A stretch of 64,000 bases of DNA. Source: an uncultured Candidatus Peribacteria bacterium. Lineage in GTDB: Bacteria; Patescibacteriota; Gracilibacteria; BD1-5; JAGOOR01. The DNA lies in assembly GCA_964544625.1 (NCBI GenBank), contig CAZJBQ010000002.1:49462-113461 (forward strand), in the 5' to 3' direction. A program made the position numbers and the translations under genes. Numbering within the stretch: position 1 is the first letter of the stretch; every line of letters begins with the position of its first letter. The notes under the pieces were generated by a model. It had not been told where the DNA came from, made no database searches, and worked only from the letters and a program-made list of their open reading frames with translations. Of this stretch, positions 5,870-58,572 are shown piece by piece.

Positions 5870-6625
5870 CTATGCACTGATACGAGTTCCGCCACGGATA
5901 GTACGTCCCATGATATGTTGGTAAACAGTTGAAGTAACCCCATCACAAATATGGGTCACACCACCTGTTTTTGCGAATTCTCTCCCGACTGCAAGTTTTG
6001 AGCGCATGCCTCCTGTTCATGTCTGTGATTTTTCTCCACAAACTGTTCCCAGCCAACTCTCTGTTATAGTGTCTGACGAAAGTTCTTTGATTCGTGTTGA
6101 CGCATCATCTTTGTCGGAGTAGACACCATTTGTATTGGTGATGAGCACGATATCCGAAGCAGAGAGATATCGTGCTACGAGGAGAGCATTTTTATCATTA
6201 TCAGCGCCTCTTCCGAGCGCTTGCATTTCTGCCGTTGAGAGAGCATCGTTTTCATTGATAATTGGGAGTACTCCAGCCTCGAGAATATCGTTGACTGTGC
6301 GTACAAATTGAATTCGATGACTCTCTATATCTTCGAGAGTAGCATGAGTTGGGAGGATTTGTGCTGTGACGATACCACGCTTTCGAAATTTCTCTGCATA
6401 GCGTGCCATCAGTATTGGTTGACCGACACTCGCGAGTATTTGGTTATTTTTCTCTCATCAGAGTATCTCACGGCCACATCCGACTGCTCCAGAAGAAATG
6501 AGAATAACAGAGATTTTTTGTTTCATGAGTTGGGCGATATCTGCGATCATTTTTTTCACCTTTTCGCTGGTGTGAAAATTCGCGAGAGATTCTGTGCCGA
6601 CTTTCACGATAATTGTTTTGTCCAT
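5870..6625 (-). CDS. proB: glutamate 5-kinase (no PUA domain)
   Basis: IIVKVGT..., GADNDKNALLVA, and G(TGA)TGGMRSKL motifs. Track ORF 6017-6409 extended in frame on both sides. Confidence 0.75.
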
Positions 6626-6639
6626 AAAATTGTTGTATA

Positions 6640-6760
6640 AAAAATAAAAACCCTCTTGCGTACAAGAGGGCTGAAAAGAATATTGTGTACTTAAGAGCTA
6701 CCCCTTGGGAGAGAAGAGAAGTGGGGGAACCGGTGATGTGATTTGGAAAATATGATTCAT
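6640..6760 (-). promoter_or_regulatory. leader-peptide attenuator, unit proximal to proB (Pro-rich leader)
   Basis: Leader ORF 6760-6698 encodes MNHIFQITSPVPPLLFSPKG. Terminator CCCTCTTG/CAAGAGGG (6651-6670) plus a U-run. The leader 3' end CAAGGGG can pair with the terminator 5' arm. Confidence 0.6.
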
Positions 6761-6764
6761 AGCA

Positions 6765-6907
6765 ATAAAAAATCCCTCTACTGAAGAGGGATTTGAATTT
6801 AAAAATACAACAAATCTACCTCTTCATGAAGTTGAGATATGGCGGAGTTGAGAGATTTTTGTTGCAGAACATACTACAGAGTATAGCTTCGTTTCTGATT
6901 TTGTAAA
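6765..6907 (-). promoter_or_regulatory. promoter plus leader-peptide attenuator, distal unit of the proB tandem
   Basis: TTTACA-16-TATACT, then 7 nt, then ATG 6872. Leader ORF 6872-6816 encodes MFCNKNLSTPPYLNFMKR. Terminator ATCCCTCT/AGAGGGAT (6772-6792) plus a U-run. Confidence 0.5.
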
Positions 6908-14717: not shown

Positions 14718-14945
14718 TTGCATTCCACTTTCTATCTATATAATCATTATATCAGCCCTGACTCCTGCTATCACAGGACGTGTCCTCCGAAGCCTTGGCG
14801 AAGGATGGACGAGCTGAGGGAAGAAATCGCAAGAAAGTAGACCCCTCCGGACACTGCACGTGACGCAGATAAATCAAGTACCGTTTTCGGTGGTAACTTC
14901 CTCACAAGAGGACCGAAACACACAGTTTATTTTGTGTGTTTTTTT
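14718..14945 (+). promoter_or_regulatory. promoter plus T-box-like leader of ileS
   Basis: TTGCAT-15-TATAAT. Antiterminator-like fold: helix UUUCGG/CCGAAA (14885-90/14913-18), 7-nt bulge UGGUAAC (14891-97), helix UCCUC/GAGGA. Competing hairpin AAACACACA/UGUGUGUUU plus a U-run ends at the ATG. Confidence 0.55.
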
Positions 14946-17900
14946 ATGCCCTTCTCTCTCCCCAAATGAAAACCCGAGTTCTCAAAACTCGAAGAATCTA
15001 TCCTCCAGTATTGGAAGGAAAATAAGACCTTTGAAAAATCAGTCGAATCCAGGCCGGCTGAAAATCCGTATCGATTCTATGATGGTCCTCCATTTATCAC
15101 GGGTACTCCGCATTATGGGAGCTTGCTATCTTCGATAATCAAGGATGTTGTTCCTCGCTATCAGACCATGCTCGGGAAGCGCGTCGAACGTGTCTGGGGA
15201 TGGGATTGTCATGGACTTCCAATTGAGCAAAAAGTACAGAAAAAATTATGACTTGAATCAAATAAAGAAATCGAAGAATCAGCAGGTGGAATCCAGGGAT
15301 TTATCGATGAATGTTACGCCTACACTCGCGATACTTCAGCAGAGTGGAGCTGGTATATCGATCATATCGGTCGATGGGTGGATATGGAGGGTGCGTACCG
15401 CACGATGGATCAGAACTATATGGAGTCGGTCATGTGGGTCTTCAAACAAATCTGGGAGAAAGGATATATCTACGAAGGGAAGCGTGTTTCGTGGTATTCT
15501 TGGAAGCTCTCGACCCCGATTTCAAACTTTGAAATCGCGATGGATGACAGCTATCAGGATGTCCAGGATCCAGCGATTACGGTGAAATTTCCACTCACAC
15601 AAGATACCTCAAAACAAGATGAGGTGCAGGGGTGAAAATTTGAATATACAGAGGATGGATATCTCCGATATGTCCTCGCAGTCATCCGAAATGCTGATGG
15701 TGAAGTTCTCATGCTCCAAAATAAAAAACACTGAAATACATGGCAATGTCCTGGTGGAAAAATTGACGCAGGAGAAACGGCAGAAACGGCTCTCAAAAGA
15801 GAAATAAAAGAAGAACTCTGAGTCGAGATAACCATCAGAAAGCATCTCTGAAATCGAAAAGTTTTCACTCAGCGTACTTTGTGGCAAGGGGAATATTTCG
15901 AAGTTGAGTTATTATCAAATCCAACTATTCAAGAACCAGAAAAACACGCCCAGATGCAGTGGATGAAAATCATAGACGATCCAGAACTCGTTCATGGTTA
16001 CTATCTCCAGTATGGTGAACATATTATTACCGAACAGCTTGGTCGGATGTATGATGCTCTCGCACTTCGAGCAATAGAGAAAAAATTACCTGAACTCAAA
16101 AGCATCTCATTGCTCGCATGGACAACAACCCCGTGGACTATACCGATGCATATGGCGATTGCGGTGCACAATGACCTCACGTATGTGTTAGTGCAAATTG
16201 AAGATGAAGCCTATTTGGTCGCGAAAAACCGTCTTGAGACCGTCATGAAAGGCAAAAATTTTACTGTTCTTACTGAATATCCTGGTTCATTCTTGGTTGG
16301 TAAATATTATCGTCCACCATTTGATTATTACGTCGGAAAAATCGATGAGAGAAATTTCCGTGTCTATCACGCTGACTTCGTCACTGACACTGATGGTACT
16401 GGTATCGCTCACGAAGCTCCAGAATTTGGTGATGTGGATTTTCAGCTTGCGAAGCAAGAGGGGATTTTCATCACGTCTGCAATCGATGAAGCAGGGAAGT
16501 ATACGGCACAAGTCCCAGACTATCAAGGCACGCTCTATATCGATGCTATCGACCCTATCACGGAACGACTCAAAGCAGAAGGAAAACTCTTCAAAAAAGA
16601 AGGTATCACTCACCGCGTCCCATACTGTCCTCGCAGCAATACGCCACTCATGCAGAAAGCCCAAAAGTCGTGGTTTATCGATATTCAGAGAATCAAATCT
16701 GAGCTCATCGCACAGAATGAAAATATCAACTGGTTTCCAGATCACTTTAAGCATGGACGATTTCTCAAATCTCTCGAATCTGCTCCAGATTGGTGCATCT
16801 CTCGCTCTCGTTTTTGGGGAACGCCGATGCCTGTATGGCAAAGTGCAGACGGTTCTGAGCGTGTCGTCATCGATTCTCGCGAAGAATTGTATCAGAGAAA
16901 TAAACCACTTGGTCAGATAACAAAGATTATTTTTGTGAGACATGCGGAGAGTGAAGCGAATGTAGCAAAAATGTATAATGATAATGGAACGTCTCCTCTG
17001 ACAAAGAAAGGACATGAGCAGGCAAAAAAACTCGCTCAAAGTCTTGAACAAGTTGATGTTGTACTTTGTTCACCATTTTTGAGAACAACGCAAACAGCAG
17101 AACCAATTGCACAAAAATTCGGACTTGATATTGAGGTTCGAGAATATCTCCATGAAACCAATCATGGCACACTAGCTGATCAAACACAGACAAAAACGGT
17201 ACTGGAAGAAAGAAAAAAATTCTTCGAAAATCATGACCATAAGTTTGGTGGAACAGGCGAATCATTCAATGATCTTATTGCTCGTGGAGAGGTTCTCCGA
17301 CAAGAAATTCTCGCAAAATATCCTGGGAAAACAGTCGTGGTCGTGAGCCACGGACATCCAGTCAAGGCATTTCTCGTCGCATGTGGAGCAAAAAGACCAA
17401 GTAATACTGAAAATGCAAAACCATACGTACTCTATCTCGATAACAACACAGGCAAGGAAATCAATCTCCACCGTCCATATATTGATCGGATTTATGTCCC
17501 ATGAAAATCTTCTTTCACTCCGAAAAAAGTGCTCGGTATTCATGGATGGACTTCTGCTGGCATCCAAAATCCGCAAGGAAAATGGTTGCCAATTCAAGAA
17601 AAGCTCAAAGCTGCATGAGTGCAATTTGATGTACCAGATTTTGATAAAAATAAGGAAACGAAATATTCACTTTGGAAAGAGAAGCTCGATACTCTGGATG
17701 TAGCAAGTTATGATACCATTATGGCAACGAGCTTTGGTTGTCCTGTTATCATGCAGTACCTCTGTGAGAGAAATATTAAATTAAAACGTCTTGTGTTGGT
17801 TGCTCCAAGTGGTCTCAAAGGGAATGAGTACCTCGAAAAAGTGATTCCAGAAATGACGGAAGATGTTGAGAAACTTCGATGACTCGTGGAAGAAATAATA

Positions 17901-19646
17901 GTCCCCCATAGTGAAGACGATGACTCGACCAGCGCACGATTTGAATACGGTCAATCACTCGCAAAAAGAATAGGTGCAATATTCCTCCCTATCAATGGTG
18001 TAGGTCATAAATTTGGAGGTTGGAGTATTGATTTTCTTTCTTCTCTTATCCAACACGGAGCCCCACTCCGTCGCGTCTCCGAAGTCCTTGATGTGTGGAT
18101 GGATAGTGCTTCGATGCCGTATGCACAAGTGCATTATCCATTTGAGAATCAAGCGAAAATGGAAGCGAGTTTCCCAGCCGATTTTATCGCAGAATACACA
18201 GGGCAGATTCGTGCATGGTTCTACGTGATGCACGCGATTGGCGTGATGGTAAAATGATCGCCAGCCTTCAAAAATGTCGCTGTCACATGAGTCATCAATG
18301 GAACTGATGGACGCAAGATGAGTAAATCCTACGGAAACTATCCTGATCCTCGTGAGACGATTCAGAAATACGGTGCTGACGCGATTCGCTTCTACCTCAT
18401 GGGCGGTACGCTGATGAAGGGTGAAGATATGGCATTTTCAGAAGCAGGTATTCAAGAATCAATCAAACGAGTCCTCCTTCCGCTCTGGAATTCCTACACT
18501 TTCTTTGCGACCTACGCAAATATCGATGAATGGGAATTCACGGATTATTCAACACCAAAGACACACGAACTCGATACATGGATTATTTCTCGTCTCCATA
18601 CATTGATTCAGGACACGAGAGTCTCAATGGATGCCTACGATCTCCAGAAAACGTGTGATGCTATCATGGTCTTCCTTGATGGTCTCAATAACTGGTATAT
18701 CCGGCGCAATCGCAGACGTTTCTGGAGAAGCGAACTCGATGCAGACAAAAAAAGTGCGTACGAAACACTCCATGAAGCCCTCGTCACAATGACGAAACTC
18801 CTCGCACCTATCTGTCCATTTATCACTGAGCATCTCTATCAGAATCTCATGAATACGACGGAATCACTGCATCTCACTGACGTCCCAGCAGAAAGCAGAG
18901 AGCACCTCCACCTCGCCGCGAAACAGAAAATGACACACCTCCAAAATCTCACCAATCTCGGTCTCGCTATTCGTGGTCGTGAGAAACTCCGCGTTCGACA
19001 GCCACTTCGAGCAGCGACGATTACCCTCGAACTCGATGAGAGCGCACGAGAGACACTCGCTGAAGAATTGAACGTCAAGGAAATACACAGTGTGAAAGAT
19101 GTCTCGGACTATGTCACCATTACCTATTCTCCTGATGCGAAAAAAATCGGAGCGACTGAGAGAAAACAATGGATGAAAACCATTATTGCTGATGCAAAAG
19201 CAGGGAAGGGGAACCTAACTTCAGAGGGGACTCTTGAACTCACGGTCCCAGAAGCACCAGACGGAAAAGTGGTTCTCGCTGCGGATGAATTTGAAGCGGT
19301 CTATACACCAAAAGAAGGTTCAACCATTGCTTTTGCTGGTAGCGCAGGATACGTCATCGGTCTCGATACAACCCTCGATGAAGCACTTACCTTTGAGGGC
19401 TATGCTCGTGATATGATTCGCGGTATTCAGGACGCTCGAAAAGAACTCGGATTCCAGGTCACTGATAGACTTCAACTCGCACTGACATCAGACAATGAAA
19501 TGCTTGGAAAAATTCTCGCCGTCCATCAAGGTATGATTGAAAAAGAAACTCTCACAACTGTCGAACTTCAGACTTCAAATCCCGAAAATACGAGAGAAGT
19601 CGAAATCGATGAAGGCTTTATGATTCATCTCAGTCTTACAAAATAA
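14946..19646 (+). CDS. ileS: isoleucyl-tRNA synthetase with three inserted enzyme domains (1566 aa)
   Basis: PHYGS (HIGH-type), WDCHGLP, WTTTPWT, LHRPYID and KMSKS motifs. All track fragments (15378, 15879, 17619, 17886, 18318) are in frame 0, joined by eleven TGA. Confidence 0.95.
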
Positions 19647-23837: not shown

Positions 23838-23978
23838 TTGATTTTCCATATAGACGCTTACAATATCTCTATGACATCTCGTCACAACATGATTATTATT
23901 ATCGCTTCGCATCACGCAGAGGGATAATATTTTCTTGTCATCATATTTTCTAACCTCTGCATCCGCAGAGGTTTTTTT
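23838..23978 (+). promoter_or_regulatory. isoleucine leader-peptide attenuator of ilvA
   Basis: TTGATT-15-TACAAT, then 6 nt, then ATG 23871. Leader encodes MTSRHNMIIIIASHHAEG (23871-23927). GCAGAGG at 23916-22 duplicates the terminator 3' arm (23965-71). The 5' arm CCTCTGC is at 23954-60. U7 at 23972-78. Confidence 0.7.
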
Positions 23979-23990
23979 ATTTTCTTTTTT

Positions 23991-25193
23991 ATGAAAACCA
24001 TCACACGTCCCGAGATAGAGAGGGCACAATCAGTTCTCCGAGAACATCGCATAGGAAATACTCCACTCACATCTCTTCAAAATCTCGTATCGTACCGACA
24101 AGGTACTGTACTTGGGAAGCGCGAAGATGAAAATGAGATAGGTTCGTACAAGATACGATGAGCGCTCTATGCTATCTCTCAACTCTCGCCTGAGCAGAAA
24201 AAAAGAGGAGTTGTCTGTGCATCGGCTGGCAATCATGCTCAGTGAGTTGCCTATGCTTGCAAACTCATGTGAATCCAATGAGTTATCTATATGCCCCGTA
24301 CGACGGACGCTACGAAAGTACGTCGAGTAAAGGAATTCGGTTGAGCCTCTGTTGAGGTTCGACTCGTATGAGATTATTTTGATCAGGCACAACAGGCCGC
24401 AAAGAAATATCAACGAGAAAAACGAGCCACTTTTGTCCATCCATTTGATGACCGTGACGTCATCATAGGGCAATCAACAGTGACGGCAGAAATACTTCAT
24501 GAAAATCCAAAAATACAAAATCTCATCTATCCTGTTGGTGGTGGTGGACTCATGACTGGAGGTATCATGGCACGTGATGCTCTCGGGAGTAGTGCTCTTA
24601 TTATCGGTGTAGAGCCAGCAGGAGCGCCGAGTATGACGCATGCCCTGGAACAATGAAAAAATTCTGCACTCAGTCACGTCAATAGATTTGTTGGATGAGC
24701 CGCTGTCGCTCAGGTCGGGAAAAATACATTTGATATTGTTCGAAAATCATGATCACAGATAGCCCTCGTTCCAGAGTGACGTGTGGCTCAGACAATGATT
24801 GATTTTCATCATGCTGGTGAAGTAGTCGAACCTGCGGGAGCACTCTGACTGGCAGGGGTTCATGTTCTTTCAGGCAAGCTTCGCGGGAGTGTCACCACTG
24901 TAGTATCTGGTCGATGCGTCTCTCCCAGTATGTGGACTGAAGTCCAGGGTTTAGCTGAGAAATTTAGTGGCAGAAAAATGATACTTGATATCATATTCCC
25001 CGAGAGAGAGGGCGCTCTTTCTTCTCTCCTCAAAGTACTTCCAAGGGGAATAAATATTGTTGCCTTTAATTATCAGAAACATTCTGGTCCATCGAGTCCA
25101 GCTCGGATAGAATTTGAGGGTGAGCCCGCCTCTCTTCATCGGGTACCATTTTTGATAAAAAAGGCTGGTTTTGCCTATTCTGAAGCGGAATAA
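23991..25193 (+). CDS. ilvA: threonine dehydratase (threonine ammonia-lyase) with C-terminal regulatory domain
   Basis: SYKIRG(TGA)A lysine motif, ASAGNHAQG(TGA)VA and GGGGL loop. 400 aa in one frame. Confidence 0.9.
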
Positions 25194-38873: not shown

Positions 38874-39272
38874 TTATCAATTCTGAGCTTCAGTATATGC
38901 TTTCTTTGTTTTTGTATAGCTCTTCATGAGTTCCTGACAAAACTCTCTACAGAGAGGATCGAGTGGATCAATCTCGCAGAGGCGTAAAAATTGGAGATAG
39001 ACACAATAGACTCGAAAATGATTCAAAAGCTGTCTCTCGAGAGGCGTTAGTGTTCCTTTTTCGAGGAGAGATTGTCAGAAATCTATTTCTGTTTTTATTC
39101 CATACCTCATGAGAAGCGTAATATACTGTTGGAAATCCCGTTTCCCTAATCGAGCCGTTGGCATACCTGTTAAAAAACGGATACCACGCAGATAATCGGG
39201 TATACCAGGGTTTTCTCGATTACCACCAGTGACGACAACGAGGGTTGAGAGATATTGTTGGTCTATTTCCAT
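38874..39272 (-). CDS. hypothetical protein (132 aa), first gene of the psd operon
   Basis: ATG 39272, two TGA, TAA 38874. Confidence 0.5.
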
Positions 39273-39417
39273 AAAAAACTCCCCTTTTTGAGGGGAGAGA
39301 ATAAGTGATAAAAATTACACACATCTACCCCCCAAGTTTTTGGAGAATCTTCACGGCGAAAGAAGAAGATGAGAGATGCTGCATATTCTTAGTCTATCAA
39401 TTTATCAGAAATTACAA
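39273..39417 (-). promoter_or_regulatory. serine-run leader-peptide attenuator upstream of the psd operon
   Basis: TTGTAA-15-TAGACT, then 6 nt, then ATG 39384. Leader encodes MQHLSSSSFAVKILQKLGG (39384-39325). Terminator CTCCCCT/AGGGGAG (39279-39297) plus U6 abuts ATG 39272. Confidence 0.6.
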
Positions 39418-45004: not shown

Positions 45005-45152
45005 TTGACAAAAATTTCATTCGTCTAAAATTATCTCTATGCGTCAAACCAGTTCACTTCTTCTCAGCCTTCTTCTTTCCCACCGGGAGAGTTAGTTTGC
45101 TGCGAAGAAAAACCACGCACTTTCCACTCTCCCCGAAACGGGAGAGTTTTTT
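45005..45152 (+). promoter_or_regulatory. leucine leader-peptide attenuator of leuA
   Basis: TTGACA-15-TAAAAT, then 7 nt, then ATG 45039. Leader encodes MRQTSSLLLSLLLSHRES (45039-45095). GGGAGAG at 45085-91 duplicates the terminator 3' arm (45140-46). The 5' arm CTCTCCC is at 45127-33. U6 follows. Confidence 0.7.
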
Positions 45153-45170
45153 ATTTCTTTAATTTCTTAT

Positions 45171-46952
45171 ATGAGCAATGTAATGCACGAATTGGATATC
45201 CACTATGAAGAATGGTGAGAAATAATGGCACAAGTGATATCTTGAGAAAAACCCCTCGGTTTTCTACCCAAAAAGGAAAGTACTACGACTGGTTACAAAA
45301 TTTATAAGCCAGAAAAAGTTATTATCAACGAAGTTGGACCACGTGAATCGGACCAAGCAGGCGGATGATTCCAGCCCTGGAACAAAAAAGATATGATAGG
45401 CTCAGCTATAAGAGCCGGTATTCCAGCTGTAGAGGTGGCATTTGCGGCAGGAGTAGACATGCAGACTATTGACTGGGCCGTATCTGAATTTGGCCGCGAA
45501 AATACACGTTTATCAGCTCTAACAGGATTCTTCCCACAAGCTATAAAAGAAGGAGCGGGGAAATTGAACAAAGCAAAGAATGGAGGAGTACATATTTTTT
45601 ATCCTACCCAAATACACCATATACAGGCTATGTTGGACAAAGACGGTAAGACACCAGTGAGAGATTTACAAGACCAGGTGCTCAAAATGATTGAGAATAA
45701 TGTCTGAATAGCACGCGATAATATCGGAAATGTCCAATTCTCACCGGAGATTGCTACTGATACTGATCCAGTTTTTCTCCTCGAATCTGTGAGAAAGGCT
45801 ATCGAGAGCGGAGCTACTATTATCAATATGCCAGATACACGAGGAGGAACGCCTACTTGGTATATGGAGAAATTATTTCATTTTATGAGTTGGGGTACAC
45901 AAGATTTACGAGAAAAACATGATTTTATATTTTCTTGTCATAATCATAATGATACAGGCATGGCTATTGCGAATAGTATTGCTGCTATTCGATGATGAGC
46001 TACACAAGTAGAGTCCACATTTTCTGGTGTTGGGGAATGAGCAGGCAATGCTCCAACAGAGCAGATAATAAATACTTTGAGACAGAATGGCTATGATATC
46101 GGAAAAATAGATAACAAGAAAGCATGAAGGATTGCTGAATATGTCAGAGCTGTTGTCTATGGTCAAGTGGTAGTCCCATATGGTCCCTGATCTGATGCAG
46201 ATGGTGCTGGAGTCCACAAGGATCGTTGGCATAAATATGTCGCATGGTGTCGAAAAAATAATCTTCATCCCAATCCTGATTTTTATAGAGCGGGCGCAAG
46301 TAGGCTCAATTTTGAAGCAGATAGTGATAATGTAGCGATAGGGAGGTTGGGCGGTGCAGGACAAGTTCTTCACGCTCTCAAGTCTCACGGTGTATTTCGC
46401 CCTACAAAAAAATGACCTACAGTAGGAAGGATACATACTACTTTTTGTGGTGACGATAAGGGAAAAATTGGCACCACACAAGAAACCAAAGTAGCCTATG
46501 ATTCAAACGTATTTGCTGAATATCTCCGTAATTCAAGGAGAATATCACAAGAAAATATATCTTTTGAGAATAATTCTGTCACTATTTCGGCTGTTATCAA
46601 TGGTAAAAATATAGTTATATCTGGGCCCATGAGTACCGAATCTGGTCCTATCCCGACAATTATTTGAGCTATTAATAGATTTTTAGGTAAAGAAATAATC
46701 AAACTTCACGTTGAGCCTATTTATAAACCAATATTCACACCCGATGTTGCTCAACAACAATTTCCAGATATTCATCAAAACGGAACTCATCACAGTGATG
46801 TCGAAGATGCTCCTCTCTGGTCTGAGGTTGTTGTCAGTGTTAACGGTATTAACAAAAAATCTCGAGTAAGATGACAAAATATTGATGAAACATTTATTCG
46901 TGCTATATTTGAAGCGTGCCTGGATGTGATATGTCAAAAAACAAAAGAATAG
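45171..46952 (+). CDS. leuA: 2-isopropylmalate synthase (LeuA/CimA family) with C-terminal regulatory domain
   Basis: MPDTRGG, CHNHNDTGMAIAN and GVGEG(TGA)AGNA motifs. Three track fragments in frame 0. Confidence 0.85.
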
Positions 46953-46987
46953 TTTTATTCTTCTAACCTCTTCCATATAATCCGAAT

Positions 46988-47662
46988 ATGTCCTACAGAG
47001 AAAACCCACAACTTCAGAAACTTGTCTCTATTTTTCTCGAGAAAAATACTCATATCAATCTCTCCGCTATTCGCGATGAAGAAGGCGTTTGGGTGAAGCA
47101 TATCGAAGACAGCTTAATTACTGCTGATTTACTTCGCGGCTATCTAGAATGACGGAATGGATGAAGGATGAAGGTACTTGATCTCGGAACAGGTGGGGGT
47201 TTTCCAGGCCTTCCGTTGGCGGTTATGTTTCCAGAAGTCCATTTTACTCTACTGGATGCTACTCGAAAAAAAATAGATTGCGTGCGAGAATTTGCCGAGA
47301 CACTCGGACTTACCAACGTCACTCCACAGTGGGGCAGGGTAGAAGATATGCGAGCGGCGAGTATGAAAGACGAGAGAAAACATAATAAGAACGGTATTAT
47401 GTTTCTCGATGGTACTCCGTCGACCAGCGATCACTATGATATCGTTGTCACGCGAGCAGCTGCGTACATCGAAGACCTCTTTACGTGGATAAAACCGCTC
47501 CTCAAAGCTGATGGTCGAGCGTGGATCTATAAACAAGCCTCAGAAGAGGAATGGGCTGACGGACAGCAACTTGCCAAAAATAGAGGCATGATACTCACAA
47601 AAGCTCTCACATATCATCTCGCAGAGCAAGAGCGATGGATACTTCAGATAATGAAAAAATAA
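46988..47662 (+). CDS. rsmG: 16S rRNA (guanine527-N7)-methyltransferase RsmG
   Basis: VLDLGTGGGFPGLPLAV motif. TATAAT lies 6 nt before the ATG. Confidence 0.85.
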
Positions 47663-47691
47663 AAAAGAATAATAAAAAACGGAGGATTTTT

Positions 47692-47966
47692 TTGACTCAA
47701 CTGAAGAAATCGCTATAGTTCTTTCATGCAAATAAATTTCACAACAAAGACGCCAAAACTTCTCACATCGAGAGGGTAGTTTTTGTTTAAAATTTAATTT
47801 TTCAAAACCCTCTCAACCTGAGAGGGTTTTATTTTTTACGAATTGTATGTCACATCACCTCTCTCTCATAACAAGCACCACCAAGAAACCGCCAAAGCGG
47901 GGAGGATAAATTATTGCCACTTTATTCTCCACTCCGCTTTGAAACATCTGAAGCGGATTTTATTTT
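47692..47966 (+). promoter_or_regulatory. tandem Thr/Lys-rich leader-peptide attenuators of lysC-asd
   Basis: TTGACT-16-TATAGT, then 6 nt, then ATG 47726. Leader 1 encodes MQINFTTKTPKLLTSRG (to 47779), with terminator 47808-47837. Leader 2 encodes MSHHLSLITSTTKKPPKRGG (47847-47909), with terminator 47933-47966. Confidence 0.65.
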
Positions 47967-47980
47967 CTCATTTTATTTTT

Positions 47981-49225
47981 ATGTCACAGAGTTTATCACT
48001 ACCGCGAGTCCTCAAAGTCTGAGGAATACAAGTAGCCCGTATCTCTGATACAAGACCTCTTATTCAACGCCTCAAACAAGATGGTCCACTATCAGTTATT
48101 CTTTCTGCTCCAAATACGGATCAATTTCGTACAACCAATGTCCTCATAGAAGCCGCTTCTTCGCTTGCTGCTTGAGATGTGCAAAAATCGAGAGAACTCC
48201 TCCTCTCTGTACAGGATTTTGTTCTCAATACTGTTTGTCTCCCCCTTCATGGGGAAGCTATTTTTACAAAAATACAGAGAGATGTGTCTGGGCTTTTCCA
48301 GCAATATTTCACAGATATGGATTTTTATTTACGTAAAAGGTCTCCAACGGCTCGACTCTATACTTCTGCTCCAGAAGAATCCAATGATTTTGTTGCATCT
48401 GTATGGAAAAAACCAACACACAATGGGCGTGGTGGATCTGGGAAACTTCAAACAGTGATACCATTTATCGAACTCGGTGAAAATATATCCGCGATTATCT
48501 ATGCACATCTGACTGGCGGAATACCGATCACGAGTCGATCATGGATGAGGGATGAAATTGCAGACGTTCATAAAAGAGTAAGAGAGAGTCAAAATCTCAT
48601 TATTTCATGAGCCCTCCGTATGAATGCTCGAGACAAAATGCTTGTTCGCTTCTGACGTGGATATACAGATGCAAATGCGTGACGCTTGGCCTTTGGCGCA
48701 GGAGCTGAATTGCTCGTTCATAAAGAATATCCTGTCTGTACTGCCGATCCAAGAATCGTAAATGGTTCGAGTCGACCAATACCCGAAGCCTCTATGGCAA
48801 CACTTCGTGCCAGTCTCCATCCTCTTGTTGGTGCTCAGTTTCTCAATCCTCATGTTTTCGCTGACGGAGAACCAGTGGATATTCAGGTTGGCGATTTTGC
48901 TTCGGAGAGGATAACGCGTGTTTCACGGAGAGATATACCCGAAGCACTCCCACTTATCCAAAAAGGTCCACGAGTACGGAGAGCTCAGGAGTGAATGAAT
49001 TTCTGAGATATATCTCTCTCAGTCAACGGATGAGGAGATGAATGTGTTATATCAGTCGTGGATCATTCTGCACGAAGTATAGAACGTGCTAGAGATATCC
49101 AGAGCATTCTTTGATCTAGAGGTGTTATTGTTTCACTCAATGAACGTGTTGCATCAGTATTGGTCCCATACGACCAGGCAAACGACATTGTTCGACAGCT
49201 TCATCAGAATATGTGCGAGACATAA
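47981..49225 (+). CDS. lysC: aspartate kinase with C-terminal ACT region
   Basis: VLKVG(TGA)G, SAPNT..TN and TADPRIV motifs. Three same-frame fragments. Confidence 0.85.
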
Positions 49226-49246
49226 ATTATTTTTAACTTTATTAGT

Positions 49247-50257
49247 ATGAAAATCGGAATTGTATGAGCGACAGGTGCAGTAGGACAAGAATTACTTCCA
49301 CTGCTTAAAAAAAGAGATTTTCCTGTCTGAGAATTGAGAGTATTTGGTTCAGAAAACTCAGCGGGAAAAACAATAGAAACGCCTTATGGACCAAGAGTTA
49401 TTCAGCTTCTTTCTGAAGAGGGAATACAGTGATTGGATGCGATGTTTTTTGCAGCGAGTGCTGAAGTATCTCGTGTATGGTGTCTTCGTGCTGCAGAAAA
49501 ATGAATTCTCTGCGTGGATAAATCGAGTGCATTTCGGAGTGATCCAAATATCCCACTTGTTGTGCCAGAAGTAAATGGCCACAGTATCCGTGAGGGTGAC
49601 CTGATTATCTCTAGTCCGAATTGTACAGCCACCATCGGAGCGTTGGCACTATGACCTATTCATCAGGCTTTGTGACTACGACGAGTGTTTGCATCGACCT
49701 ATCAAGCAGCGAGCGGTGCTGGACAACCAGCGATGGAAGAGCTTATCGCAGCCACGCGTGCAAAGCTGGCAGGAGAAAATTTCACACCACAACAATTCGA
49801 TCATAATTTAGCCCTTAATCTCTTCCCACACATTGGTACTTTTCTCGAAGATGGATATACGGATGAAGAAATGAAGTTCACTAATGAACTTCGTCGGATT
49901 TTAGGGTTACCACACCTCCCAATAGATTGTACCTCTGTGCGTGTACCTATTTCTCGAGCTCACAGTGAAGATATTACGGTCGAAACTGAACAGCCTTTTG
50001 TCGTGAAGCAGGTCCAAGAGCTTTTATCACGGTCAGCTGGCGTAGACCTCGTTGATGAACCAGGAAAAAAACGGTATCCTATGCCTTCGTGAGCAACAGG
50101 AAAGTATAATGTGGAAGTGGGGCGAGTACGTCAGAGTTTTTCTTTTGATGGACACGGTGGTCGATTCTTCGTATCTGGTGATCAGCTCCTCAAGGGTGCA
50201 GCACTCAATGGACTCCAAATACTCGAACATGTATTGAAACAGAGACGAAAAGCCTAA
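49247..50257 (+). CDS. asd: aspartate-semialdehyde dehydrogenase
   Basis: IGIVG(TGA)ATGAVG, SPNCTA active-site Cys and [10 protein letters not shown]. Confidence 0.9.
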
Positions 50258-51048
50258 GAAATTCGTCGTATAATATCTTGATACCTCTTTCATCGTACTC
50301 GGAAATTTTCTCTATCTTGAGACTTCAAAAGAGCCTTCGTCAAAAGTCGAAAGAGGCAAGCCCGGAGAAGTATCTGCTCGGAATGTGGAGGAAGGAGTGT
50401 ATACGCCTCTTCTCCTCCATTTTCCCAAGCGATAGAGTCCGCGATGAGTATCGCTTCAGCATATTCTCGTGGGCGATAATCGAGAGAAAAATCTATCACC
50501 ACTGGAGGCAGCGTGTCATGAAAGAGGATATTTCCACAGAGATCGCCGTGGATGATCTGGCTGGGGAGAGAAAGAGGTGTTAATAATTTCATTACCCCAA
50601 TAACTACCTCATATATTTCTGGATGTATATCTGTTGGGAGTTCTCTTTCTCACCAGACTATTTCGTGTGCTCGTGACCAGGGAGAGTCACTAGGATGCCA
50701 TCCATCAGGTTTTTCGATGTTGCTGAGGAGATCATGGAGCTCTCGGGCTATTTGGTATTTTTCAGTAATTCTCCCTGTGACTTCTTGCCCTAGCTCAAAA
50801 TGTGTACATCACCAACCTTTAAAGGTGTAGTGTCTATCGGTTGTTTTATGATGATAAGACACTCGGAAATTGAGTGGTTTGAGCTGGTTTACTATCTCAG
50901 AGATTCACTCATAGGCCGCTTCATGAGGTTTCAGGACGAAATCTCCAACACGCCATGAATTTCCCTGACCGCCCGGAAGGGGGGTAGCTGCGTGAGGCAA
51001 TCCAAAGGCATCAAGAACGTCGAGAGGTATCATGAGATTATCTTCATT
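50254..51048 (-). CDS. aminoglycoside/choline-kinase-type phosphotransferase family protein
   Basis: [12 protein letters not shown]...VIDF catalytic loop. N-terminal GGQGNSWRV. Confidence 0.7.
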
Positions 51049-57330: not shown

Positions 57331-57906
57331 TTATGGTGTTGTTGATGTTGTGCCAGTAGTTGTACCACCAGTAGATGTTTTTATGAGATCGCTTGTTGGA
57401 TCAAATGAAGTTCTCTCTGTTGTGACAGTTGAGTTGGTGCCTGGGATATTACAACTTCCGAGTTCATACTTGTCTGTATCGATTGATTTACCACTCACAT
57501 CATCAGCACCGTATTTTCCAGTATTGTTTGAGCTTTCAAAAGTTGCAGCAAGGAGATATCCAGTACCACCATCACAAGGCATATAAAAATAACCACATGT
57601 AGTTGCAGTTTTGCCATCCGCCTTGAGACAAGCAGTTGCTGTTGAGCCGAGTTTTTCGACGATATCTTTACCTGCCACTTCTTTGACATACTCAGCGAGT
57701 TTGCTAGCATCATCAGGGACAACTCATTTTGATTGTACGGCATCGAGGAGGACGATATTGATGGCATTGAGATCAGCGATACGAGTCGTATCACGAGCTC
57801 CTTTGATAAATTTACCATACTGTGAGATACCCGCTGTTGCGAGGATGGCGATGATAGCCATGACGACCATGAGTTCCACGAGTGTAAAACCTTTTTGATT
57901 TTTCAT
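57331..57906 (-). CDS. type IV pilin/pseudopilin
   Basis: Prepilin leader plus GFTLVELMVVMAIIAILA N-terminal helix. One TGA. Confidence 0.8.
57779..57897 (-). repeat. 119-nt near-identical 5' coding segment shared with the second pilin gene
   Basis: One mismatch versus 58445-58563. Confidence 0.85.
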
Positions 57907-58038: not shown

Positions 58039-58572
58039 CTACGCTTCTCCTGAGATAGTTTTTCCGGTTGGAATAAGATGAGAATCATCAAACGAACCAA
58101 CATCCCCGGCAGGATTATTGCAACTCCCTATCTCGTATTTGTCTGGATCGAGGGTTATGCCACTGACGTTATCCTGTGCATATTTTGCTCTATTGTTGGA
58201 GCTCTCAAATGGTGTTGCTAGGAGAAAACCCGTACCACCATCACAAGAAATATAATAATATCCGCAGTGAACGGGGTTGTCATTACTATTGAGACAAGCG
58301 GTAGATGTATTACCGAGTTGTTCAGCGATATTTTTCCCAGTGACTTCACGTATATAACGACTTAATTCTTGAGCATCACGGAGAACCACTCATTTCTTTT
58401 GAATTGCATCGACGAGAACCACATTGATAGCATTGAGATCATCAATACGAGTCGTATCACGAGCCCCTTTGATAAATTTACCATACTGTGAGATACCCGC
58501 TGTTGCGAGGATGGCGATGATAGCCATGACGACCATGAGTTCCACGAGTGTAAAACCTTTTTGGCGGTGCAT
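58039..58572 (-). CDS. type IV pilin/pseudopilin (paralog)
   Basis: Same N-terminal helix. The C-terminal domain is a diverged homolog (CGY.Y..CDGGTG.LLA..FESSNN). Confidence 0.8.
58445..58563 (-). repeat. 119-nt near-identical 5' coding segment shared with the first pilin gene
   Basis: One mismatch versus 57779-57897. Confidence 0.85.

Follow-up and report, generated by a model that had tools for sequence, protein, structure and literature searches.

Gene regulation in uncultured Gracilibacteria that read TGA as glycine (Gly) is almost uncharted, and the region in front of an aspartokinase-like gene and asd in one of them, an uncultured Candidatus Peribacteria bacterium, raises the question of how these two genes are controlled. 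The region lies on contig CAZJBQ010000002.1 (assembly GCA_964544625.1), of which a stretch of 64,000 nucleotides (nt), hereafter the window, was analysed. Threonine (Thr) and lysine (Lys) both derive from aspartate semialdehyde, and leader-peptide attenuation is a textbook class of mechanism. An initial annotation of this DNA had proposed two complete leader units in series after one TTGACT-16-TATAGT promoter, with a mixed Thr and Lys content that pointed to multivalent control of a single aspartokinase gene. We consider it likely that the locus consists of two ribosome-mediated (leader-peptide) transcription attenuators in series, which would control a divergent aspartokinase gene and asd.

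All of the proposed elements were found, in the order promoter, leader open reading frame (ORF) 1, terminator 1, leader ORF 2, terminator 2, aspartokinase-like gene and asd (Table 1). Relatives for comparison came from 14 kinase homologues (42-82% identical) with their contigs, and scans of genome and metagenome contigs added 7 loci; a second protein search with the most distant homologue (P0014) as query gave no new relatives. The promoter is the best promoter-like site within 46500-50500. A gap of 6 nt separates its -10 hexamer from the leader-1 ATG, and this spacing is 6-7 nt in 13/13 aligned loci. Since the spacing is so short and so conserved, the leader-1 transcript is probably leaderless and starts at or beside the A of this ATG. 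No conserved internal promoter was found, either by a promoter scan or in the alignment of relatives. The gene upstream, rsmG, ends 64 nt before leader 1 and has no terminator of its own in the window. Three other candidates in the region were set aside: a promoter-like TTGAAA-16-TATTTT inside terminator 2 (47939-47966), which is weak and not conserved in relatives; GGAGG at 47901-47905 as a Shine-Dalgarno sequence for a TTG-initiated ORF at 47914, since the motif is not conserved (loci L003, L007, L013 and L018) and the genome hardly uses such sites; and a long minus-strand ORF under genetic code 25 (47249-47947), which overlaps rsmG and was treated as spurious.

Table 1. Positions in the window of the aspartokinase leader region, its genes and the leaders of the same style on other operons.
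Feature	Position	Strand	Details
Sigma-70-type promoter	47692-47719	+	TTGACT (47692-47697), 16-nt spacer, TATAGT (47714-47719); 10/12 match; spacing to ATG kept in relatives
Leader ORF 1	47726-47779	+	MQINFTTKTPKLLTSRG, then stop; 17 codons; ATG 47726, TAG 47777-47779 directly after GAGAGGG
Putative regulatory codons of leader 1	47741-47758	+	T6 T7 K8 T9 P10 K11 (ACA ACA AAG ACG CCA AAA)
Region 1 of unit 1	47743-47764	+	Protector 5' half (AACAAAGAC ... CUUCUC), in minimum-free-energy fold
Region 2 of unit 1	47770-47787	+	GAGAGGG UAG UUUUUGUU; predicted to pair with region 1 or with region 3 (antiterminator)
Terminator 1	47804-47837	+	Stem AAAACCCUCUC / GAGAGGGUUUU (regions 3 and 4), U-run at end; 12 bp, -16.2 kcal/mol
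Leader ORF 2	47847-47909	+	MSHHLSLITSTTKKPPKRGG, then stop; 20 codons
Putative regulatory codons of leader 2	47871-47897	+	T9 S10 T11 T12 K13 K14, then invariant P15 P16 K17
Predicted antiterminator of unit 2	47895-47939	+	AAGCGG (47895-47900) : CCGCUU (47934-47939); -17.0 kcal/mol
Terminator 2	47933-47966	+	UCCGCUU / AAGCGGA and U-run; stem 47933-47957, -10.0 kcal/mol
Divergent aspartokinase-like gene	47981-49225	+	414 amino acids under code 25; in-frame TGA (Gly) codons
asd, aspartate-semialdehyde dehydrogenase	49247-50257	+	Both Pfam domains; NCBIfam NF011456, 352 bits, above cut-off
Isoleucine (Ile) leader before ilvA-like gene (23991-25193)	ORF 23871-23927, region 23838-23990	+	MTSRHNMIIIIASHHAEG, then stop; IIII
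Leucine (Leu) leader before leuA/cimA-like gene (45171-46952)	ORF 45039-45095, region 45005-45160	+	MRQTSSLLLSLLLSHRES, then stop; LLL.LLL
Tandem proline (Pro) leaders before proB-like gene (5870-6625)	Region 6640-6905	-	
proB-like leader A	ORF 6872-6816, terminator 6794-6770	-	MFCNKNLSTPPYLNFMKR, then stop; Pro codons
proB-like leader B	ORF 6760-6698, terminator 6672-6649	-	MNHIFQITSPVPPLLFSPKG, then stop; Pro codons

The tandem arrangement is conserved. The initial annotation had suggested a search for it in relatives, where conservation of only one of the two hairpins, or disrupted leader ORFs, would have spoken against it; neither applies, apart from the exceptions given below. Of the 15 distinct loci whose upstream sequence is complete, 14 (aspartokinase 56-82% identical) have both leader ORFs and both terminators in the same order, whatever gene lies upstream, and two more contigs that are cut inside unit 1 (L018 and L019) retain terminator 1 and the whole of unit 2. 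In L009, the 42% relative, a Thr/Lys leader 1 (MQTPQSTKKMTKNFSYREREF) is followed by a terminator and by a second ORF (MTTIFSSKEITKPP). Mean column identity in the intergenic region is 77%, and the cores are invariant. The upstream gene is rsmG in some loci and an unrelated or divergent gene in others (L003, L005, L010, L013 and L014), and asd is missing next to the aspartokinase-like gene in some relatives; therefore, the units belong to the kinase gene. Since unit 1 and unit 2 align over their full length with a score of 41, compared to 19.5 ± 3.5 for shuffled sequences, the two units are suggested to have arisen by tandem duplication.

The reading of the leaders depends on the genetic code. 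ORFs called with table 11 are fragmented all over the window, and with TGA as a sense codon the ORFs of 100 codons or more add up to 179 kb in place of 64 kb. Thus, the window reads under genetic code 25 (TGA as Gly), which restores full-length proteins; examples are the N-terminus of the kinase (VLKV-TGA-GIQ) and the K-x-G-G motif of the kinase. Database homologues have been called with TGA as tryptophan and carry W at those positions. No transfer RNA (tRNA) genes lie within the window, and hence none that would confirm the code as tRNA-Gly(UCA). Shine-Dalgarno-like motifs precede only 5 of the 55 ORFs of a first crude gene call, and in a refined call a strong -10 box ends 5-9 nt before the ATG in 10 of 49 genes (~20%), including rsmG at 46988, which suggests that leaderless mRNAs are widespread in this genome. 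With Shine-Dalgarno sequences rare and -10 boxes near the ATG common, leaders without a ribosome-binding site are no objection to their translation.

Both leaders are short conserved ORFs with start and stop inside the 5' leader, and neither contains TGA. In each unit, Thr or Lys occupies 5 of the 7 codons just 5' of the repeated terminator arm (P = 4.6e-4 per unit, against a proteome background of 5.8% T and 6.4% K, 12% together). ORF 1 is kept in 15 loci, with the TAG stop in 15/15 and invariant in the 13 aligned loci. The leader-2 core T(S/K)TTKKPPKR is present in 14 loci scanned and in the two contigs cut inside unit 1. In one of these (L019), the leader-2 end CGG TGA GGA TAA reads KRGG-stop solely under code 25. 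The ATG and the reading frame of both leaders are kept in all relatives, and the stop of leader 2 is displaced in two. In these two loci (L004 and L013), the ORF continues into or through the terminator.

The end of each leader ORF repeats an arm of the terminator that follows. As claimed initially, GAGAGGG at the end of leader 1 (47770-47776) recurs unchanged as the 3' arm of the hairpin CCCTCTC (47808-47814) / GAGAGGG (47820-47826), which forms part of a stem at 47804-47830 followed by a T-run and is conserved in all relatives. Likewise, AAGCGG at the end of leader 2 (47895-47900) was verified as matching the 3' arm of TCCGCTT (47933-47939) / AAGCGGA (47951-47957), in a terminator that ends 14 nt before the aspartokinase ATG and is conserved in all relatives except L009. 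An intrinsic terminator thus separates each leader ORF from the structural gene. The plus strand of the 64-kb window carries 6 copies of GAGAGGG and 13 of AAGCGG, which puts the probability that one falls by chance in the 60 nt in front of a given terminator at ~0.006 and ~0.012, respectively (jointly ~7e-5). Both units fold more stably than shuffled sequences (z = -6.0 for unit 1 and -2.7 for unit 2).

In both units, an antiterminator is predicted that excludes the terminator and shares its 5' arm with the end of the leader ORF. In unit 1, AACAAAGAC...CUUCUC (47743-47764) pairs with GAGAGG...GUUUUUGUU (47770-47787) to form a protector helix of -13.1 kcal/mol (-13 to -16 kcal/mol in 13 loci), and the alternative antiterminator between regions 2 and 3 (GAGAGGG/UUUUG with CAAAA/CCCUCUC) has -12.0 kcal/mol and is paired in 97-100% of the alignment cells. 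In unit 2, the antiterminator encloses a hairpin of GGAGGAUAAA (47901-47910) and UUUAUUCUCC (47921-47930), ranges from -10 to -18 kcal/mol in 13 loci with 91-94% of the alignment cells paired, and is stronger than terminator 2 (-17 versus -10 kcal/mol). The helix between regions 1 and 2 is negligible there (0 to -4.5 kcal/mol in 13 loci), which leaves unit 2 with no real protector and a design of three regions. The two units are therefore not equivalent copies. Pairing is kept in 93-94% of the cells for the terminated and the antiterminated structures alike, compared to 41-66% in slid controls, and in L005 regions 2, 3 and 4 are altered together (CGAGGGG / CCCCTCG / CGAGGGGG).

Folding with a ribosome mask (28-nt footprint, on a transcript up to region 3 and before region 4) indicates how the units could work. 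In unit 1, the protector formed with no ribosome or with a ribosome at codons 1-2, the antiterminator formed with the A-site at codons 3-11, which span TTKTPK, and region 2 was covered once the A-site lay at codon 13 or further on, up to the stop. Unit 1 is, in this folding model, a classical four-region attenuator. On ribosome-free RNA, region 1 would pair with region 2 and the 3:4 terminator would form; a ribosome stalled at the Thr/Lys codons 6-11 would cover region 1, so that region 2 (GAGAGGG..UUUUG) could pair with region 3 (CAAAA.CCCUCUC) and block the terminator; and a ribosome at the UAG stop would occupy region 2 and allow the terminator to form. In unit 2, an A-site at or before codon 13 permits the antiterminator, and one at or beyond codon 14 masks region 2. 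Termination would then occur only when a ribosome passes K13/K14 onto AAGCGG, and a stall on T9-K13, or absence of translation, would give read-through. Read-through would be the default of unit 2 because it has no protector and its antiterminator is more stable than its terminator. These folding patterns hold in 13 loci and in L017; unit 1 of L009 has no protector. Two units with opposite default states would make a natural two-stage filter, in which unit 2 would remove transcripts leaking past unit 1. The aspartokinase gene would be transcribed only when charged tRNA-Thr and/or tRNA-Lys is short. We infer from the sequence that the leader ORFs are translated, that ribosomes stall in them, which amino acids are sensed (Lys alongside Thr) and that transcription terminates.

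Leaders built in the same way were found on three further operons in the window, by a terminator scan and reading of the sequence upstream. They share a -10 box that precedes the first ATG by 6-8 nt, an ORF end that repeats the terminator 3' arm, and a terminator ~20 nt before the biosynthetic gene (Table 1). The Ile leader of the ilvA-like gene follows a TTGATT/TACAAT promoter, and GCAGAGG at its ORF end recurs in the terminator at 23952-23973. In the Leu leader, CGGGAGAGT recurs in the terminator at 45126-45147, and this leader is conserved in L001 (L001:55-205) as MRPSQSLLLNLLLSHRES, then stop. The proB-like gene is preceded by two Pro leaders in tandem, and unit A of these has a CAACAAA/UUUGUUG protector like the one in unit 1 in front of aspartokinase. 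The first leader of each of these operons, including the Ile leader with its ATG at 23871, is probably leaderless, as judged from the promoter spacing. Since the ilvA, leuA and proB leaders are each enriched in a residue that fits their own pathway, Thr and Lys are likely to be the residues sensed before aspartokinase and asd. This match is indirect, and it is the strongest indirect argument for Thr and Lys.

Codon variation in the relatives also bears on which residues are sensed. The variation in the cores is mostly synonymous and in third positions, with Thr codons alternating among ACA, ACT, ACG and ACC, Lys between AAA and AAG, and Pro between CCG and CCA. In leader 1, T9 is ACG, ACT or ACA, position 10 is P, T or S, and position 11 is K, T or I. 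In leader 2, T11 uses all four Thr codons, K14 is AAA or AAG and P15 is CCG or CCA. Non-synonymous changes at the variable Thr/Lys core positions are limited to P to T or S, K to T or I, S to K or T, and T to K or A. The leader 1 of L017 (MHMNTTTKTKKTTHKSRG) has a divergent sequence yet is richer, with 6 Thr and 4 Lys codons and the core TTTKTKKTTHK. It is conceivable, and in our judgement unlikely, that the attenuators sense Thr only and that the Lys and Pro codons are kept for RNA pairing, for an A-rich unstructured mRNA that allows initiation without a Shine-Dalgarno sequence, or for ribosome positioning. Thr is indeed the majority residue of the leader-1 core and is favoured by the replacements (P to T, K to T), the AAG codon of leader 1 sits in the helix AACAAAGAC:GUUUUUGUU, a stall at K14 or K17 of leader 2 would mask region 2 and so favour termination, and an IlvA-like threonine dehydratase encoded in the window makes Thr a metabolic hub. 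However, Lys is found in every leader of every relative, K14 alternates synonymously, S10 is replaced by K in one clade, and leader 1 of L017 gains Lys codons. In addition, the ilvA, leuA and proB leaders are enriched in the residue of their own pathway, so the enriched residues are likely to be the sensed ones.

The peptide sequence of leader 2 was considered as a signal in itself. Its C-terminal half is far better conserved than its N-terminal half, and Pro-Pro is invariant as amino acids, with synonymous change, wherever unit 2 was recovered, including L009 (ITKPP, then stop). A ribosome paused at Pro-Pro would cover region 2. These features would fit conserved peptides, especially TTKKPPKRGG, that cause nascent-chain arrest or an EF-P-dependent pause, the switch then reporting translation capacity or an exit-tunnel ligand instead of tRNA charging. 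We regard this as improbable: leader 1 lacks Pro-Pro, and T, K, P, S and I interchange freely in its core; the conserved KKPPKRGG coincides in large part with the RNA helices CCGC/GCGG, AAGCGG and GGAGGA; and the similar Ile, Leu and Pro leaders speak for the sensing of codons. In two attenuators that read Thr and Lys codons, the invariant Pro-Pro of leader 2 may serve to hold the ribosome over region 2.

It is highly improbable that translational sensing is absent and the short ORFs are coincidental, with the hairpins acting as plain tandem terminators or insulators behind rsmG or answering to a protein or metabolite. In favour of this, rsmG does end close to leader 1 with no terminator of its own, and covariation is not above controls. 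Against it, the units stay with the aspartokinase-like gene also in loci that have another or a divergent gene upstream, and rsmG and leader 1 have a promoter between them. The starts, frames and Thr/Lys cores of the ORFs are kept while their codons vary synonymously, arm repeats of this kind are hardly expected by chance, four operons carry pathway-matched leaders, and Rfam gave no gathering-score match and, in a relaxed scan, no riboswitch or T-box. At gathering thresholds, the whole window gave no Rfam match. A known riboswitch, T-box or Thr leader was rejected, as Thr_leader (RF00506), Lysine (RF00168) and T-box (RF00230) had no match at E<=10 over 47600-48050. The sub-threshold matches in this region at the same E-value were Phe_leader (24.9 bits, cut-off 55), His_leader and the generic rnk, L10 and PyrR-site leader models; Phe_leader is one of several equally weak, generic matches of the hairpin-plus-terminator kind.

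Several observations weigh against two Thr/Lys attenuators in series. Each leader has 3 Thr and 2-3 Lys codons, fewer than E. coli thrL, which has 8 Thr and 4 Ile codons. Several Lys/Thr codons of leader 1 also sit in the protector helix, and therefore their nucleotide conservation has a second possible cause. Leader 2 would need ribosomes to initiate at an internal AUG, and its TAA stop has become TAT in L004 and L013. In L009, no clear terminator was seen in unit 2. In the full-length RNA, terminator 1 is always in the minimum-free-energy fold of unit 1, even with the ribosome mask; the model is thus kinetic and co-transcriptional, as it is for trp, because the unit-1 antiterminator arises only in a transcript that ends before region 4. 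Covariation was not significant among the 13 loci (one pair with two-sided change, and shuffles that equalled the observed values), because the relatives are too similar in the leader region. Taken together with the conserved units, the synonymous Thr/Lys variation, the aspartokinase and asd targets and the parallel Ile, Leu and Pro leaders, we find the Thr/Lys leader reading of the initial annotation supported.

The genes downstream had been described as aspartate kinase-asd. For asd, which starts 21 nt after the aspartokinase stop, this is unambiguous by Pfam and NCBIfam. The product of the gene in front of it has no Pfam match at E<=0.001; one homologue has a weak AA_kinase match, the NCBIfam aspartate-kinase models match at E = 3.5e-7, far under their cut-offs, and a sequence-profile search of the PDB gave a marginal match to Corynebacterium aspartokinase (E = 1e-3). 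A structure model built from 14 homologues has a predicted local distance difference test score (pLDDT) of 77 and a predicted template modelling score (pTM) of 0.79. In a fold search with it, the top 41 PDB matches are all aspartokinases over the full length (kinase and ACT), with a best E-value of 2e-15 and a best template modelling (TM) score of ~0.6. The TADPRIV motif is retained, and more distant relatives have an AA_kinase and ACT domain architecture. On this model, gene 47981-49225 is probably a very divergent aspartokinase, and because standard Pfam profiles miss the protein its identity rests on fold and remote homology. The family is very narrow: an exhaustive profile search of 1.8 billion representatives gave only two full-length clusters of it at 50% identity. 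The structure model has low-confidence insertions at residues ~120-158 and 211-229. The leaders give a functional context to this aspartokinase missed by standard profiles and suggest that the cell makes its own Thr and/or Lys.

Convergent with asd and overlapping its end by 4 nt, a minus-strand gene at 50254-51033 encodes an APH-fold protein of the TIGR02569 family (function unknown); several relatives have this gene in synteny with asd and a FemAB-family gene. Elsewhere in the window, terminator-like hairpins with T-runs lie at 14917-14940 (plus strand) and 39279-39297 (minus strand), 6-7 nt before the ATG of the next genes (14946-19646, plus, and 38874-39272, minus); each may be the terminator of the upstream gene or a regulatory element. 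Over the first 40 amino acids shown (M..QKGFTLVELMVVMAIIAILATAGISQYGKFIKGARDT), the predicted N-termini of the adjacent minus-strand paralogues 57331-57906 and 58039-58572 do not differ from residue 5 on, which is typical of type IV pilin-like proteins.

A broader proposal is tentative. Gracilibacteria with code 25 and small genomes may carry a set of leaderless attenuators on ilvA, leuA, proB and aspartokinase, in which the tandem units are non-redundant: unit 1 would be off by default, and unit 2 would be on by default and switched off only by a ribosome that reaches the conserved KKPPK pause site. The pair would integrate Thr/Lys tRNA charging with general translation or EF-P capacity and would provide multivalent Thr and Lys control at the RNA level. 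If the attenuator model is true, transcription-translation coupling and tRNA-charging sensors are at work where Shine-Dalgarno sequences are nearly unused and leaderless mRNAs are many. Since the leader ORFs lack TGA, standard-code hosts or cell-free systems would allow a direct test of the model.

The closest known systems share some of these features. The E. coli thrL leader (Thr_leader, RF00506), in front of thrA for aspartokinase I-homoserine dehydrogenase I, is alike in its end-product codons for two amino acids and in the mutual exclusion of antiterminator and terminator. It differs in sensing Thr and Ile with a single unit and a Shine-Dalgarno-led ORF, whereas here Thr and Lys codons lie in two units and the first ORF is probably leaderless; the two have no sequence or covariance-model similarity (no match at E<=10). 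E. coli thrA is listed with Thr_leader, and the lysine riboswitch is the usual control of lysC in Proteobacteria and Firmicutes (PMC2659441). The lysine riboswitch (L-box, RF00168) is alike in premature termination before lysC, with the same target gene and output. In contrast, its large conserved aptamer senses the metabolite directly, and here Lys would be read via Lys codons. Lys codons in a short leader ORF reportedly control an intrinsic terminator of the lysine cluster of Thermus thermophilus; that leader is said to differ in being a single unit with Lys codons only, in the aminoadipate pathway and not before an aspartokinase.

For two ORFs in one leader, the Salmonella mgtCBR operon offers a parallel, in which the short ORFs mgtM and mgtP each have alternative stem-loops and act additively on transcription (PMC3641672). 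Both leader RNAs contain two short ORFs, each coupled to its own alternative structures, with translation predicted for the ORFs described here. The mgtCBR ORFs differ in responding to different signals (ATP and proline) and in belonging to a virulence and Mg2+ operon, unlike the aspartokinase leaders, which have the same Thr/Lys mix in both ORFs, resemble a duplication and have a canonical intrinsic terminator each.

Leaderless leader peptides have been reported in Actinobacteria. In Deinococcus deserti, attenuator leader peptides with the AUG at the transcript 5' end have been described, 14 of them predicted before amino-acid biosynthesis and tRNA synthetase genes (PMC4007540). That organism belongs to another phylum and uses the standard code, the transcription start proposed here comes from the spacing of -10 box and ATG, and the passages of PMC4007540 searched mention no tandem Thr/Lys unit before aspartokinase for it. 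Literature searches for attenuation or leader peptides in Gracilibacteria or Patescibacteria gave no paper. Concerted feedback inhibition by Thr and Lys is known for single aspartokinases, and a mixed Thr and Lys leader before an aspartokinase would be its counterpart at the RNA level. Compared to the known systems, the new features here are the mixed Thr and Lys block, the serial arrangement of two units that are not equivalent, a start that is probably leaderless, the code-25 lineage and the cryptic aspartokinase.

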